The translations under genes were made by a program, and so were the position numbers. From Candidatus Micrarchaeota archaeon (GTDB taxonomy: Archaea; Iainarchaeota; Iainarchaeia; Iainarchaeales; JAGVWC01): a stretch of DNA of 29,485 nt. Below the pieces are notes generated by a model. The model had not been told where the DNA came from, searched no databases, and saw only the letters and a program-made list of their open reading frames with translations. The stretch lies in the NCBI GenBank assembly GCA_043803815.1, contig JAZDJR010000023.1:1-29485 (forward strand), read 5' to 3'. Of this stretch, positions 7,815 through 18,740 are shown in pieces (position 1 is the first letter of the stretch; each line of letters begins with the position of its first letter).

Positions 7815-9683
7815 TTATCCTTCCGTCTCGCCCGCGTCTTCCACCAACTGCACTTTGCCCTGCTTTTCATACATCGATTGGATTTCACTTACGGTGGTAG
7901 CGTCTTCGGGCAATCGGTCGATTCGAAAACTAATCATGCGCGGAAAGCGAAGCGCAAATCCTTCACCGCCCGCGGTTTTTCCCGCGCAGTGAATCGGGCT
8001 TTTGGTGATTTCGTCCGCGCGGACCTCGATGACGATTTTGGGTTCCACCCAAAAATCGGGTTCCAGTTCGCTCGCCACGTTTTTGGGCTTTTGTTTCACC
8101 TTTAATTTGGATAATTGCTCTTCAAGTTCGGACAAGACCTGTTCGGTCATGCCGGTCCCGATTTTGGCGATGCTTGCAAACGAATCGTTTTCCTTGTCGT
8201 ACACCGCGGTCAATAGTCCCCCCAAGCCGAACTGGGTTCGTTTTCCTTTTCCGGAATAATAACCGATTATCACAACGTCCGCGGAATCCTGCAGTTCACC
8301 TTTGTACGAGCGCTTCAATTTTATCCACGCGAATTTTCTGGCGCCCGCAATATAGCGCGCAGCCAAGTCCTTGGCGATGATTCCTTCCAATCCGCGGGAA
8401 ATGCTTTCCTCGAAAAACGCGTTGAGTTCGGACGCCTTATCCGTAATAATCATCTCGGTCAGCGAAAGAATCGGGCCTTTTTTGATGATGCTTTCCAGTT
8501 TTTTTCTGCGCTTCAAAAACGGCTGTTCCATGAGGTTTTCGTTGTTTACCATTACCACGTCAAAGCAAAGCAGTTTGAGGGGAAACTCCTCGGATTTTTC
8601 GGCAATGCCGTATTTTCGCTTGCGTTGAATCGTCACCTGAAACGAAAAAAACTCGCCGGTTTCTTCCTTAAACGCGATTGCTTCGGCTTCAAAAATCGCC
8701 TGCTTTGGAATAATCTGTTCCTGAATCGCTTTCACCAAATCCGGAAAGCTATTCGTCATGTTTTCGGACTGGCGCGAAAAAATCCAGACTTTTTCTCCGT
8801 CCTTGTGGCATTGCAGGCGAAACCCGTCGAGCTTGGTTTCCACCGCGCACTTCCCGAGCTTTTCAATGATTTCTTCCCCGCTGTTCAGCCGCTCCGCCAA
8901 GGTGGGGCGAATCGGGATTCCCGAACGCAATTCGATTTTTTTCAATCCCTTCAAGCTGCGCTCCAAAACATTTTGAACCACGAGGCCCAAATCGGGATGC
9001 ACGTTGTATTTTTCCTCGATTAATTCGCGCACGTAACGCTTGATTTTGAGTTCCAACTCTTCGGACCGCTCTTTTTCTTTTTTGGATTTTAATTCCGACT
9101 CAAACTGTGCAACCTGTTTTTTGTTTTCTTTTTTGAAATTTTCCGCTTCATTTACGGCCAGCGCGTCCATAATCGTCGGGTCGCCGACTCCCAAGCGCAA
9201 TTGTTCCATCGGAATCCGGACTATAAACCGCGCTTCCAAAGAAGACGCGCTGTTCAGCAATTCCGCCAGCATGCGGATTTTGGATTCCTGGCTTCCTGAA
9301 CCTTGCGCATGCGCGATTTTTTGCATGTTGTCAAACACTTTTTTCAGGGACAATACCTGAGACGAAAACGACTGCTGTTTTTTTTGGGCGACAAAATATT
9401 CCGCGGTTTCCCCCAAATCGCCGTTTTCCTTGAATTTTTTGTTCACCTGAACCGGAGAAAAGCCCGCGACTTTTCCAATCGCCTGTTCGACAAATTTTTC
9501 ACCCATTCCGATTTTGACGTTTTCATAATCGGGGGCGAGTTTTCCCTGCAACAAATAAACAAACGGGGCTGCTTCCAAAAACGGCAACTCGTGGAAAAAA
9601 ACCGCTAACTGGCTTGTCATTTCCAGGCGCGAACCGGTTTTTTCAAGGCCATCGAACAATTCCGCGATTTTTTTAAATTCCAT
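7815..9683 (-). CDS. lig: ATP-dependent DNA ligase
   Basis: Motif I ETKLDGFR, EGIIAK, WIKLK, OB domain, LRFPR; N-terminal DNA-binding domain. Confidence 0.97.
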   Translation of the reverse strand: MEFKKIAELFDGLEKTGSRLEMTSQLAVFFHELPFLEAAPFVYLLQGKLAPDYENVKIGMGEKFVEQAIGKVAGFSPVQVNKKFKENGDLGETAEYFVAQKKQQSFSSQVLSLKKVFDNMQKIAHAQGSGSQESKIRMLAELLNSASSLEARFIVRIPMEQLRLGVGDPTIMDALAVNEAENFKKENKKQVAQFESELKSKKEKERSEELELKIKRYVRELIEEKYNVHPDLGLVVQNVLERSLKGLKKIELRSGIPIRPTLAERLNSGEEIIEKLGKCAVETKLDGFRLQCHKDGEKVWIFSRQSENMTNSFPDLVKAIQEQIIPKQAIFEAEAIAFKEETGEFFSFQVTIQRKRKYGIAEKSEEFPLKLLCFDVVMVNNENLMEQPFLKRRKKLESIIKKGPILSLTEMIITDKASELNAFFEESISRGLEGIIAKDLAARYIAGARKFAWIKLKRSYKGELQDSADVVIIGYYSGKGKRTQFGLGGLLTAVYDKENDSFASIAKIGTGMTEQVLSELEEQLSKLKVKQKPKNVASELEPDFWVEPKIVIEVRADEITKSPIHCAGKTAGGEGFALRFPRMISFRIDRLPEDATTVSEIQSMYEKQGKVQLVEDAGETEG

Positions 9684-9763: not shown

Positions 9764-9903
9764 GGGGCTGTAGTCTAGCCTGGTAGGATTCATGCTTTGG
9801 GAGAGCCCCTTTTCTTTTTAGGAAAAGAAAAGGCCCTCGGTTCAAAAGAAAACCCGTTGGTCCAAACGAGCATGTGACGGGGGTTCAAATCCTCCCAGCC
9901 CCA
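9764..9903 (+). tRNA. tRNA-Pro(TGG) with 67-nt intron at 37/38 (intron 9802-9868); CCA not encoded
   Basis: Acceptor GGGGCTG/CAGCCCC-A; anticodon stem CATGC/GCATG; T-loop TTCAAAT; canonical BHB (TTTG/CAAA helix, bulges GGA and CGA). Confidence 0.95.
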
Positions 9904-10140
9904 CAGCTTTTTTTGCATGGCAAAAAAACCTCCGTTTTGGGCACCGAATCAAGCAGTGCTTGATTGGCCCTTTTTGGCCAACAGCCAAAAATGGAAGCCC
10001 AAAAGGACCCTTGAAGCTTTGCTTCAAGTGGTGGGAAAAAATTGCCTTCGGCAACAGCTTTTTTTCATTCTGGAAAAAAACCCGGGAAAAACTTCGATTC
10101 TTTTTTCGGGTTTTCTTTCCAAGAAAAGTTTTGCGGGGAA
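9903..10140. repeat. Mosaic of short hairpins and triplex-type repeats
   Basis: At least six inverted repeats; ACAGCTTTTTTT at both 9903 and 10054. Confidence 0.75.
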
Positions 10141-13170: not shown

Positions 13171-13278
13171 TTGGGGCCGTAGCCGTAGCAGCCTTTTTAA
13201 TAAAAAGGCTGGCGAAAAAATAGTATCGGGCATTCTAAGAATGCCCGGTCGTATGCGTCGTAAATGGACCAACCATTT
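13171..13278. repeat. Duplicated tRNA 5' end (12 bp) plus double-hairpin element resembling the tRNA intron
   Basis: TTGGGGCCGTAG at 13171 and 13277; hairpins CAGCCTTTTT/AAAAAGGCTG and CGGGCATTC/GAATGCCCG. Confidence 0.8.
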
Positions 13279-13424
13279 GGGGCCGTAGTCTAGCCTGGTA
13301 GGATTTCAGCATGGGGAGAACCTTTGTCAAAGGTTCGCGAAAAATACGTTATACCCTTTTCAAGGGTACTGCGTATGCCATTGCCAGCGTGCTGAAGACG
13401 GGAGTTCAAATCTCTCCGGCCCCA
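13279..13424 (+). tRNA. tRNA-Pro(GGG) with 73-nt intron at 37/38 (intron 13317-13389); CCA not encoded
   Basis: Acceptor GGGGCCG/CGGCCCC-A; anticodon stem TCAGC/GCTGA; A32/U38; T-loop TTCAAAT; relaxed BHB. Confidence 0.92.
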
Positions 13425-13425
13425 A

Positions 13426-13497
13426 AATTACTGGTTTCTTTTCCCCAGGCTTTTCTTTTCCAAAGAAAAGGCTGGTGGACAATCTCTCCGGCCCCAA
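13426..13497. repeat. Triplex-type hairpin element followed by a 17-bp copy of the tRNA 3' end
   Basis: AATCTCTCCGGCCCCAA at 13409 and 13481; TTTCTTTTC-N6-CTTTTCTTT-N3-AAAGAAAAG between them. Confidence 0.85.
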
Positions 13498-14480: not shown

Positions 14481-15956
14481 ATGCCCGAAACAAAACCCGA
14501 AAAAGTGACTTTTGCAATCGACAAGGAAGCCAATTTTTCCGAATGGTTCACTGAAATCATCAAGATCGCGGAACTCGCGGACCTGCGCTACAACGTCAAA
14601 GGATTTTTGGTTTATCAGCCCTGGTCGGTTCTGACCATGGAAAAAATGTACGATTTTTTGGAAGAACTTTTGCAGAAAAAAGGCCACAATCCGTATTGGT
14701 ATCCCGTACTAATTCCCGAGGGAAATTTAAAGATGGAAGCCGAGCATGTGGAAGGATTTGCACCCGAAGTATTCTGGGTAACCGAAACCGGCGACGGCCA
14801 AAAGCTTGAGGAAAAGATGGCTTTGCGCCCCACTAGCGAAACCGCGTTTTACCAGATGTTCGCCTTGTGGATTCGCTCTTACAACGATTTGCCGTTTAAG
14901 ACCTACCAGCGCGCGCAGGTATTTCGCTACGAAACCAAAGCCACGCGCCCGTTTTTGCGCAGCCGCGAAATTTATTGGATAGAAACCCACAACGCTTTTT
15001 CCAATCATGAGGACGCATTAAGGCAAATTCAGGAAGACATGAAAACCACCGTCGAATTCTTAACAGAATATCTGGGAATTCCTTTTATTTTTTTCAAGCG
15101 CCCCCAATGGGACAAATTCGCCGGCGCAATCAACACCTACGCCGCGGATTCCTTGATGCCGGACGGAAAAGTCGTCCAGCAGCCGTCCATGCACGATTTG
15201 GGGCAAAACTTTTCCAAAGCGTTTAACGTAACCTTCAAGGACAAGGACGGAACCGACAAATTCGCCTACATTACCTGCTTTGGGCCCGCCATTTCCCGCA
15301 TTTTTGCCTCGCTCATTTCGGTTCACGGCGACACCAAAGGACTGCGCTTTCCGTTTGAAGTCGCGCCAAAGCAAATCGTGCTTATCCCGATGGCGGCCAA
15401 CAAAGACCCGAACGTTTTGCCGTTTGCCCGAAAACTCGCGGAAGAACTGCGGTTAAGCGGCTACCGCGTGCACCTGGACCGGTCGGACAAAATGCCCGGC
15501 GAAAAGTTTTATTTCTGGGAAATGAAAGGCGTGCCGCTTCGAATCGAAATCGGGCCCCGCGAACTCAAAAACAAAAAACTCGTAGTGTACCGCCGCGACT
15601 TGCAGCAAAAAGAAACGATTAACGCCAAAGACCTAGCCGGCTGGATTCAAAAAACCGGAAAAGAACTTTCAAGCAACCTGCGAAAAGACGCCGGTCACCT
15701 GTTTGACAACGCGATTAAAGACGCGAATTCTTTTGAAGAACTCAAAAAACTCATCAACACCCGCGGATTTGTCAGAACCAATTTTTGCACCGACGAACTA
15801 AGCGCAAGCGCCTGCGCGGAAAAAATCGAAAAAGAGCTTTCCGCCAACGTGCGCGGACAAAGAGCAGAAAAAACCGAACAGCCCTTCGGAAACAAGACCT
15901 GCATTGCCTGCGGAAAACCCGCCAAAGTCGTACTGTACGTGGCCAAGCAATATTAG
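14481..15956 (+). CDS. proS: Prolyl-tRNA synthetase, archaeal/eukaryotic type
   Basis: LRPTSET, FRYETKATRPFLRSRE, HDLGQNFSKAF, HGDTKGL, anticodon domain WEMKGVPLRIEIGPRE, CIACG, terminal Tyr. Confidence 0.96.
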   Translation: MPETKPEKVTFAIDKEANFSEWFTEIIKIAELADLRYNVKGFLVYQPWSVLTMEKMYDFLEELLQKKGHNPYWYPVLIPEGNLKMEAEHVEGFAPEVFWVTETGDGQKLEEKMALRPTSETAFYQMFALWIRSYNDLPFKTYQRAQVFRYETKATRPFLRSREIYWIETHNAFSNHEDALRQIQEDMKTTVEFLTEYLGIPFIFFKRPQWDKFAGAINTYAADSLMPDGKVVQQPSMHDLGQNFSKAFNVTFKDKDGTDKFAYITCFGPAISRIFASLISVHGDTKGLRFPFEVAPKQIVLIPMAANKDPNVLPFARKLAEELRLSGYRVHLDRSDKMPGEKFYFWEMKGVPLRIEIGPRELKNKKLVVYRRDLQQKETINAKDLAGWIQKTGKELSSNLRKDAGHLFDNAIKDANSFEELKKLINTRGFVRTNFCTDELSASACAEKIEKELSANVRGQRAEKTEQPFGNKTCIACGKPAKVVLYVAKQY

Positions 15957-17874: not shown

Positions 17875-18558
17875 TTATTTTTTGGGCAAACGGTTTATAT
17901 AATCCAGAATTTCCCGGCTTGCGACCGCGCAGCCCGCGGTCTTGACGGCAAATAACGACGCTTCCAAAGTCGCGGGATTTTGGGAAAGCTCGTAGCCGAA
18001 CAAGTCGTGTTTATACGTCCACGCCAGCAAATCGCACGAGCGCACAATCAACGCGGACTTGAACTGCTGCCGAATCGGGGCAAGGGCGGCCTGGTTCACC
18101 GAAACTTTTTTGTCGTACTTTGCAGCAATGTGGTTTTGAAGGCGAAGCGGCTCTTCAACCAGCATGCGACACGTCCTTTCGTCGATAGCCATGGCGTCCG
18201 CCTGCAAAGACAAATACAAAGCCATGGTTTCGATTTCTCCGGCCTGCAGAATCGCCAAGGGTTTTTTTCCGATTAAAAAACTGTGATTGGCCCAGTCCGC
18301 GATTTTGGCTGCCCATTGTTTTGTTTCGCTGGTCGGCTGGACGATTTCCATCCATTCCATCTCGACGGCTTCGCGAATCCGCTCGGCGTTAAGCTCGAAG
18401 CGGTGAATCCGGGTGGGGGTTTCGACTGATTCGTCCCAAACCGACTGGGAAAGCAAAAACCGGCAGTCGGAATGGTCGTGCATGTGCATTAACAGGCGAA
18501 AAAAACATTTTTCGGAAAGCGAAATTAGAGTGCTGGAATCGAAAATAATGGCGTTTAT
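17875..18558 (-). CDS. PIN-domain protein; probable ATA start at 18558
   Basis: In-frame extension above the listed ATG gives IIFDSSTLI (first PIN strand and Asp); also SVWDE, AGEIE, IDER; GAGGTG 5 nt before ATA. Confidence 0.75.
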   Translation of the reverse strand: MNAIIFDSSTLISLSEKCFFRLLMHMHDHSDCRFLLSQSVWDESVETPTRIHRFELNAERIREAVEMEWMEIVQPTSETKQWAAKIADWANHSFLIGKKPLAILQAGEIETMALYLSLQADAMAIDERTCRMLVEEPLRLQNHIAAKYDKKVSVNQAALAPIRQQFKSALIVRSCDLLAWTYKHDLFGYELSQNPATLEASLFAVKTAGCAVASREILDYINRLPKK

Positions 18559-18740
18559 ATCAACACCTCGCCGTTGATTTTCGCGAAGCGATTTTCTTTT
18601 TCCCGGGTTTTTCTTTTTTGAAAAGAAAAAGCCGCGGTACTGGAATCGAAAATAATGGCGTTCAATTCAACACCTCGAAATTCGAATCGAAAATAATCGC
18701 ATTCAATTCAGCGCATTGACTTGGAACCGAAAATGGCGAT
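18533..18740 (-). repeat. Three to four tandem decaying copies of the PIN gene start with an inserted triplex-type element
   Basis: 38-bp copies at 18533 and 18640 (3 mismatches), 27-bp copy at 18684, degenerate copy near 18722. Confidence 0.85.

Follow-up and report, generated by a model that had tools for sequence, protein, structure and literature searches.

Where does the sequence that fills an archaeal tRNA intron come from? This question is raised by the tRNA-Pro(UGG) gene in a stretch of 29,485 nucleotides of DNA from a Candidatus Micrarchaeota archaeon of the order Iainarchaeales (assembly GCA_043803815.1, contig JAZDJR010000023.1, here C23), which is referred to below as the window. 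Positions are those of the window unless another contig is named; the assembly comprises 1.08 Mb in 36 contigs (46.6% GC, 85.6% complete) and is designated G000, its relatives being G001-G040. The explanation that we favour, and to which we would give slightly better than an even chance, is that an ordinary bulge-helix-bulge (BHB) intron of this gene is occupied by one copy of a dispersed, triplex-coded DNA repeat of ~45-55 nt that propagates as DNA. The repeat would be propagated or rearranged at the DNA level, and its copies would persist where they do no harm, that is, in tRNA introns, in the DNA adjoining tRNA genes on either side, in the rRNA spacer and in the 3' flanks of genes.

The Rfam tRNA model covers the full length of the gene (48.2 bits, E 1.5e-7) and places an insertion of 70 nt in its anticodon loop, and ARAGORN, with introns allowed, reports a tRNA-Pro(tgg) whose 67-nt intron (9802-9868) follows G37; in its default mode ARAGORN makes no tRNA call across the whole window. 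A preliminary description of this DNA had placed the intron at the same boundaries, which proved right. Within the intron, GAG (9803-9805) is followed by a pyrimidine arm (9806-9819), a loop, a complementary purine arm (9823-9833), a spacer ending in TTC (9834-9843, with CTC at 9836-9838), a second purine tract, AAAAGAAAA (9844-9852), and 16 further nucleotides in which CAAA (9863-9866) is complementary to U32-G35 of the anticodon loop. The predicted minimum free energy (MFE) structure contains an 11-bp hairpin (9808-9818/9823-9833) with a TAGG loop, extended across a CC/CC mismatch by the 3-bp GAG/CTC stem; this hairpin and the third tract are both present as first described. The junctions can be drawn as a canonical 3-4-3 BHB (9796-9799 paired with 9863-9866 as the helix, 9800-9802 and 9867-9869 as the bulges, and cuts between 9801 and 9802 and between 9868 and 9869), but to call it perfect, as had been done, was an overstatement: at -20.9 kcal/mol when constrained, against -25.5 kcal/mol for the MFE structure, it is 4.6 kcal/mol dearer, and its inner helix h' is weak, with 2 bp unless the repeat's own stem serves as h'. 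Judged by its sequence, this appears to be an ordinary archaeal BHB intron at position 37/38, with splicing predicted.

The repeat family was found in this genome by a scan for pyrimidine/purine hairpins and a scan for the spacer core. Alignment of 17 intergenic copies gives the consensus form CAGC, T-run, loop, A-run, CCTGGG, A-run, and a consensus fold of 10 pairs that contains a conserved C.C mismatch and in which 4 pairs show compensatory double changes (for example CAG/CTG versus CGG/CCG). A covariance model built from these copies (R1) matches the genome 48 times at E ≤ 1, 25 times at E ≤ 1e-3 and 22 times at E ≤ 5e-7, 17 matches being the training copies themselves; those outside the training set include four tRNA introns at 38-47 bits (Table 1). 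Of the 25 copies at E ≤ 1e-3, thirteen are associated with tRNA genes: four occupy introns, which total 1171 nt, and nine fall within 100 nt of a gene. Since tRNA genes and their 100-nt flanks make up 1.0% of the genome, an enrichment of this size has a binomial probability of 5e-20 (2e-8 with ~12% of the genome taken as available). The tRNAs confirmed by Rfam are the two Pro species, Arg(TCT), Trp, Ser(GGA), Ser(UGA) and Leu(TAA). Regarding the question of whether the motif is more frequent in introns than composition predicts, the repeat is strongly enriched both in introns and in tRNA flanks. Among the intergenic copies named in the preliminary description, those at 13435 and 18592 are strong, but the one at 10098 is weak; a full copy at 10048-10094 and a partial copy at 9905-9931, which it did not list, share the orientation of the intron copy.

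That the Pro intron copy belongs to this family is shown by its counterparts in relatives and by shared architecture. In a BLAST search of the whole gene against the 40 relatives, the intron part (query 41-89/95) aligns with ~15 dispersed sites in G024 (49-57 nt at 88-92% identity; E 1e-12 to 1e-9 per genome), with further matches in G004, G007, G032, G034, G037 and G038. When aligned, 47-50 of 58-63 nt are identical between the Pro intron copy and the copies of G024 and G004. The flanks of the latter read CAGCCCC and CTGGGG, against GAGCCCC and CTCGG in the window, and because both sides differ together, the outer stem is kept by a double change (GAG/CTC for CAG/CTG). Within this genome, the tRNA-Tyr intron is related to the Pro intron (38/63 shared). 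Compared with the CCTGGG type, the Pro copy differs mainly in a second C.C mismatch and three extra spacer bases. It belongs to a sister subfamily, alike in architecture, whose spacer is longer and ends in TTC and which is present in multiple copies in other genera of the order. The intron is indeed mostly a copy of a dispersed repeat (50 of 67 bases), inverted relative to the 13435 and 18592 copies; its asserted likeness to the intergenic copies at 10098, 13435 and 18592 extends to the three-tract architecture but not to close sequence identity, with only 8-10 bits under R1.

The arrangement of the tracts themselves is informative. Along one strand, the order is a pyrimidine arm, a short loop, the complementary purine arm, a spacer, and a second purine tract that mirrors the first. 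A mirror repeat is needed for a third strand that lies antiparallel to the purine strand, while on the complementary strand the same arrangement provides a parallel pyrimidine third strand; we know of no copying process that makes mirror repeats. The fit of the second purine tract to the first, either reversed (mirror) or as it stands (direct), was compared in the copies of this genome and loci L016-L064 that carry an internal G in both purine tracts (n=51), after trimming of terminal G runs. The mirror fit was better in 27 cases and the direct fit in 4, with 20 ties (sign test P = 3e-5), and when each distinct first purine tract was counted once, the split was 18 to 2. Over the shorter tract, the mirror fit was perfect in 38/51 and the direct fit in 14/51. 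Without trimming, the 80 copies divided 37/12/31 (mirror/direct/tie), most of the direct cases being due to spacer G's taken into the tract. The ties are mostly symmetric A4GA4 tracts, and the Pro intron copy is itself a tie, its tract being its own mirror. All clearly asymmetric tracts are mirrored, for example L024 (the Pro(CGG) intron of G038), L057, L058, L029 and L016, and in ~20 asymmetric cases examined by eye the number of A's after the G in the first purine tract equals, within 1, the number before the G in the second.

A single spacer subfamily occurs with different tracts (T4CT4, T5CT4, T3CTCT4), and matching changes run across all three arms. All three tracts vary together, in keeping with what an intrastrand triplex requires; the repeat carries the sequence code of a fold-back triplex, of the purine motif on this strand and of the pyrimidine motif on the complement. 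In addition, 45/53 aligned copies (G001, G002, G003, G011, G015) retain a C.C mismatch that separates the outer 3-bp stem from the T/A stem, which hints at protein recognition or at a special third-strand junction. Both the formation of a triplex and the molecule in which it would form are inferred. Counts of G.U versus A.C mismatches, used as a test of the folding strand, gave no signal (6 v 2 for the present genome, 1 v 6 for its relatives and 2 v 0 for a further set), and the intron fold has a z-score of -1.9. A selected fold, if there is one, is more likely to lie in single-stranded DNA than in the pre-tRNA, because most intron copies yield RNA with the purine-motif order, and Holder et al. 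(2015, PMC4666352), in the available text, hold intrastrand triplexes in RNA to be possible with the pyrimidine motif but not with the purine motif, for which they cite Semerad and Maher (1994).

The local surroundings of the copies point to events in DNA. In six of the 25 copies, exact direct repeats of 13-23 nt are found on both sides within 80 nt, while only 0.25% of 2000 random control sites reach 12 nt, with a maximum of 14. The copy after tRNA-Pro(GGG) is flanked by the last 17 nt of that gene (13409-13425 and 13481-13497, around a 55-nt segment), which looks like an att-type or target-duplication scar. Furthermore, a 41-nt tandem repeat in the window (18530-18718; units 18530-18570, 18637-18677 and 18678-18718, with 100/90/66% identity) is split between its first and second units by 66 nt that hold another copy. 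Partial duplicates of tRNA genes stand beside copies at three places on other contigs (Table 1); at one of these, upstream of tRNA-Ser(GGA), the copy itself belongs to a partial tandem duplicate that comprises exon 1 and the intron element of that gene. These flanking duplications are either insertion scars of variable length or rearrangements provoked by the element; either process acts on DNA.

How far the repeat has spread was surveyed in 215 species genomes of the phylum, 196 of which belong to one order. The pattern T4CT4-N2-8-A4GA4-N3-18-A4GA4 occurs in 108 of these 196 genomes, with ~379 matches (150 listed and 229 unlisted), as compared to 7 matches in total for the same pattern read backwards (purine, purine, pyrimidine). 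This genome contributes 3 matches and none in the control, and the exact pattern was absent from all 19 genomes of the other orders of the class. The CCYGGG spacer core was counted 17 times in this genome and 8-14 times in the family's three other genomes. Outside the family, four genomes have 5-14 occurrences and the remaining 33 have 0-1 each, with a total of 1 for the backwards control over all genomes. The spacers fall into recurring types common to several families. Among the genomes searched, the repeat family is specific to this DPANN order, with several subfamilies defined by their spacers.

Two samples of loci were used to place the copies relative to tRNA genes. In the first, 20 loci around BLAST matches to the intron part, ARAGORN finds a tRNA gene in 14; the element lies in an intron in 10, always in tRNA sense, and directly after a tRNA 3' end in 7. 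The second sample was chosen by spacer pattern alone (G001, G002, G003, G011, G015), and overlaps were checked by hand. Here, 19 of 52 R1 matches are tied to a tRNA that Rfam confirms. Of these, 6 lie in introns and 6 on the 3' side, each set with 4 sense and 2 antisense copies, and the other 7 lie on the 5' side. Five further intron calls come from ARAGORN only, and the remaining matches stand more than 100 nt from any tRNA, so that about half of the copies are tRNA-linked. Intron copies are in tRNA sense in 7/8 cases in this genome, 10/10 in the first sample and 4/6 Rfam-confirmed cases in the second, and in two genera the copy in Ser(UGA) is reversed. Introns thus show a genuine sense bias, though not a strict one, since the pattern-based sample includes antisense copies. 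As both orientations occur in introns, a DNA element fits better than a single RNA motif.

The orthologous tRNA-Pro(UGG) genes indicate how the intron and the repeat are related. In G001 and G002, of the same family, the intron is little more than a copy of the CCTGGG type plus a CAAAC that pairs with the anticodon, and in G004, G024 and G026 it holds other subtypes of the repeat. The gene is intronless in seven relatives, namely G003 (same family), G006, G011, G015, G017, G037 and G040. The introns of G018 (170 nt) and G030 (44 nt) contain no three-tract element by eye, the genome-wide pattern matches being 1-2 and 0-1, respectively. The position of the intron is shared while its content turns over. 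Among the orthologous tRNA-Pro introns compared, the same intron was not seen in repeat-poor relatives, an occurrence that the preliminary description had named as contrary to its proposal. That proposal left open whether the repeat invaded the intron or gave rise to it; invasion is the better supported, by the turnover among orthologs and the tRNA-specific BHB strand, and creation the less so. Since the BHB strand that pairs with the anticodon is specific to the tRNA and cannot travel with a generic repeat, copies probably insert into pre-existing introns rather than creating them, and the intron copy would be harmless because it is spliced out.

Several observations weigh against the proposal of a DNA-propagated repeat. 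R1 scores the Pro intron at 8.4-9.9 bits (E 0.8-2.2 in the window), over the hairpin part only, which is not significant, and blastn of the intron against this genome returned no second copy (best match 16 nt, E 0.012). In addition, both Glu tRNAs and Tyr, which are among the eight intron-bearing tRNAs counted, as well as Arg(GCG), are called by ARAGORN only, without confirmation from Rfam. Neither a transposase, nor terminal inverted repeats, nor a fixed-length target duplication was found, so no insertion mechanism emerges, and the duplications on either side of copies could stem from rearrangements that the element causes and need not be insertion scars. Finally, the order-wide three-tract code, the kept C.C mismatch and the majority sense orientation in introns fit a cellular function equally well.

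Such a function could be that of an RNA motif of pre-tRNA and pre-rRNA, in which a stable hairpin and a docked A-rich strand, placed right after cut points, would help precursors or excised circular introns to fold, be processed or stay stable, and in which the spread of the element reflects selection rather than mobility. This is consistent with the placement of copies 1-8 nt past the 5' splice site or 1-6 nt past the tRNA 3' end, with the prevailing tRNA sense in introns (7/8 here, 10/10 in the first sample), with the conservation of the code and the mismatch over many genera, and with a copy in the 16S-23S spacer directly after tRNA-Ala. We nevertheless consider it unlikely. The sense RNA would need a purine-motif triplex, which reportedly does not form in RNA (PMC4666352), and in the available text of a 2026 review A.A-U/G.G-C RNA triples are listed merely as a class (PMC13541005); moreover, both orientations occur in Rfam-confirmed introns (2/6 antisense, and Ser(UGA)), the orthologous tRNA lacks an intron in seven relatives, about half of the copies are not near a tRNA, and the flanking target duplications point to DNA events. 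It is distinctly improbable, in our view, that the repeat is instead a bidirectional terminator module that has been copied around, with oligo-T on one strand and two such runs on its complement, and with a hairpin or triplex appearance that is a by-product of facing T- and A-runs. A terminator needs neither mirrored G positions in the third tract nor a covarying outer stem, and introns of tRNAs that are presumably essential carry T5-T7 runs on their sense strand, with the element in either orientation; bacterial PIT elements, too, are described as lacking terminator activity in the available text of PMC4666352 (citing Hoyne and Maher 2002). In favour of this explanation, the T-run starts 4-6 nt past the 3' ends of tRNA-Pro(UGG), His and both Ala genes, and copies stand just past the stop codons of open reading frames (ORFs) in either orientation (for example C36:9640, C29:73731, C14:22173 and 18594 of the window); these are crude ORF calls, so noisy (88% 'coding', with overlaps) that they were used only for a few clear gene 3' ends. 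The RNA-motif and terminator readings both keep considerable weight as rivals. A chance likeness of low-complexity, A/T-rich tracts is scarcely credible, even though A4GA4 is its own mirror, so that the Pro copy alone cannot separate mirror from direct, R1 does not score this copy, and the fold z-score is only -1.9: the backwards control yields 7 matches against ~379, the intron part finds the G024 copies at E 1e-12 to 1e-9 per genome, and flank, spacer and covarying outer stem are all shared with the copies of relatives.

With the DNA repeat as the preferred reading, its closest parallel is most likely found in the PIT/BoxC/TMECO intrastrand-triplex repeats of bacteria, of which it would be an A/T-rich archaeal counterpart. 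The latter, in the available text of Holder et al. (2015, PMC4666352), are dispersed, intergenic repeats of Enterobacteria and Cyanobacteria without promoter or terminator activity that are tied to genomic instability. Both have the same tract order along one strand (a pyrimidine stem followed by two purine stems, with a loop after each of the first two stems), are multi-copy and mostly intergenic, vary sharply in copy number among relatives, are associated with local rearrangement and have no known function. However, the bacterial repeats are G/C-rich, and the tracts found here, T/A-rich with 1-3 C/G, do not match the proteobacterial TMECO/BoxC consensus CCCTCNCCC N3-6 GGGNGAGGG N3 GGGNGAGGG, having no similarity to its CCCTCNCCC part. 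The archaeal (DPANN) repeat further differs in its longer, subfamily-specific second loop (6-15 nt) and in having about half of its copies in or beside tRNA genes, many in introns; and while the TMECO triplex has been demonstrated in vitro, that of the archaeal repeat is predicted from sequence. The two belong to one architecture class but to different families.

Other known systems are more distant. Intron 'transposition' in Thermoproteales, as described in the available text of PMC4090602, refers to isoacceptor tRNA genes of one genome with closely similar introns, presumably gained at the DNA level, by a mechanism given as unknown. An intron sequence common to different tRNA genes of one genome is likewise seen here; unlike in Thermoproteales, it is a defined three-tract repeat at the canonical intron position in another lineage, which also occurs in trailers, leaders, the rRNA spacer and gene flanks, with target duplications. 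With H-DNA mirror repeats and major-groove RNA triplexes the repeat shares mirrored purine tracts and the rules A.A-T(U)/G.G-C or T.A-T/C+.G-C, as given in the available text of PMC13541005. Unlike H-DNA, its three tracts and short loops on one strand suit fold-back of a single strand, and known natural RNA triplexes have a third strand rich in U (PMC13541005), which among the intron copies would come from the antisense minority only. Finally, MITEs (miniature inverted-repeat transposable elements) and REP-like palindromic repeats are also small, non-coding, dispersed, hairpin-forming and intergenic. In contrast to MITEs, the repeat has no terminal inverted repeats past its internal hairpin, its target duplications are variable (13-23 nt exact, 41 nt at 90%), no transposase was identified, and the third, mirrored tract has no counterpart. 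In the literature searched, no triplex-coded repeat is described in archaeal tRNA introns; the supplements of Holder et al. and the ITxF database, which includes archaeal genomes, were outside this search and could list related motifs.

The mechanism by which archaeal tRNA introns are gained, and by which unrelated tRNA genes come to share intron sequence, is called unknown in the available text of PMC4090602, and that of a 2026 preprint on Asgard tRNA introns offers no general arrival route (10.64898/2026.10.13.758758). A repeat that fills many tRNA introns and flanks of these archaea may help to explain the origin of such sequence. Insertion and turnover can be studied directly, because what the introns share is a definable repeat, present outside introns as well, which has target duplications and differs between close orthologs. 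The hundreds of copies with matched changes in three tracts provide unusually clean comparative evidence for selection on a fold-back triplex code; the PIT/TMECO repeats of bacteria still lack a function. A bolder proposal is that the element folds as a triple helix in vivo and carries sequence into DPANN tRNA introns, possibly creating them, near the cut points of tRNA precursors. This we hold to be doubtful, well on the unlikely side, but if true it would offer the first mechanistic handle on the arrival and turnover of archaeal tRNA introns, together with natural selection for an intrastrand triplex shown by three-way covariation.

Table 1. Positions of the tRNA-Pro genes, repeat copies and associated features (window numbering unless a contig is named; R1, covariance model of the 17 intergenic copies).
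Feature	Position	Strand	Description	Support
tRNA-Pro(UGG)	9764-9903	+	exon 1 9764-9801, intron 9802-9868, exon 2 9869-9903	Rfam RF00005; ARAGORN with introns
Intron of tRNA-Pro(UGG)	9802-9868	+	67 nt, canonical 37/38 position, one nt 3' of anticodon	
Three-tract repeat copy	9803-9852	+	50/67 intron bases	
Partial copy	9905-9931	+	hairpin only, T7/A7; 1 nt past tRNA-Pro(UGG) 3' end	R1 25.8 bits, E 3.3e-5 in window, model positions 9-35 only
Full copy	10048-10094	+	CCYGGG-spacer subfamily; one of 17 training sequences	R1 50.6 bits
Degenerate copy	10098-10135	-		R1 15.1 bits, E 0.03 in window
Weak copy	13182-13221	+	57 nt upstream of tRNA-Pro(GGG)	R1 21.8 bits, E 4e-4 in window, 0.016 genome-wide
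tRNA-Pro(GGG)	13279-13424	+	73-nt intron 13317-13389	Rfam 45.9 bits; ARAGORN
Full copy	13436-13481	-	directly after tRNA-Pro(GGG)	R1 51.7 bits
Full copy	18594-18641	-	between 41-nt tandem repeat units	R1 51.4 bits
tRNA-Ser(UGA) intron	C8		repeat antisense to tRNA	R1 47.3 bits
tRNA-Ser(GGA) intron				R1 42.4 bits
tRNA-Leu(TAA) intron				R1 39.7 bits
tRNA-Arg(TCT) intron				R1 38.0 bits
tRNA-Glu(TTC) intron				R1 21.8 bits, E 0.016
tRNA-Glu(CTC) intron				R1 15.4 bits, E 0.9
Partial duplicate beside repeat copy	C29:62376-62428		Ser(GGA) exon 1 + intron element	
Partial duplicate beside repeat copy	C29:4402-4423		Trp 5' end, 22 nt	
Partial duplicate beside repeat copy	C14:53876-53955		Arg(GCG) 3' end, 19 nt	

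Other identities of the Pro(UGG) intron were considered. A split tRNA, with the intron serving as terminator of one half and promoter of the 3' half, was rejected, as introns of the G002 type (~45 nt) leave no room for a promoter; it is also disfavoured by the third tract, which lies 17-25 nt before exon 2, and by an ordinary T/A-mixed box promoter seen by eye upstream of the gene. No C or D boxes of a C/D-box guide were seen by eye in the intron, and in the Rfam scan of the window only tRNA reaches threshold.

In the vicinity of the gene, an ATP-dependent DNA ligase with three Pfam ligase domains (7815-9683, opposite strand) ends ~80 nt upstream of it. A prolyl-tRNA synthetase gene (14481-15956, forward strand; Pfam tRNA-synt_2b, HGTP_anticodon and ProRS-C_1) lies ~1 kb downstream of tRNA-Pro(GGG) and 4.6 kb from tRNA-Pro(UGG), so that the synthetase stands together with two of its own tRNAs. 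Its best matches, at 62-66% identity, are in metagenome-assembled genomes labelled Ca. Iainarchaeum / Diapherotrites or 'archaeon', those labelled Woesearchaeota reaching 55-60%.

By eye, the introns of tRNA-Pro(GGG) and tRNA-Arg(GCG) (C14:53737-53893) both start with a miniature hairpin and an A-tract, followed by TACG; this could be the repeat in reduced form or another module shared between introns. The 16S, tRNA-Ala(UGC) and 23S genes are linked on C4 (53262-58390, reverse strand), and the 400-nt spacer after tRNA-Ala, whose repeat copy is mentioned above, also holds further T-runs and an A/T-rich stretch that is a candidate for a separate 23S promoter.

Genes of this kind matter for annotation as well, since tRNA finders miss or mislabel them, and Rfam missed tRNAs with introns >100 nt. 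ARAGORN, for instance, labels the gene at C8:31281-31471 (reverse strand) Ala(tgc), while the Rfam alignment and a long variable arm identify it as tRNA-Ser(UGA) with a 108-nt intron, and the Pro(UGG) genes of several relatives are mislabelled by the same program as Ser, Leu or Pro(ggg).

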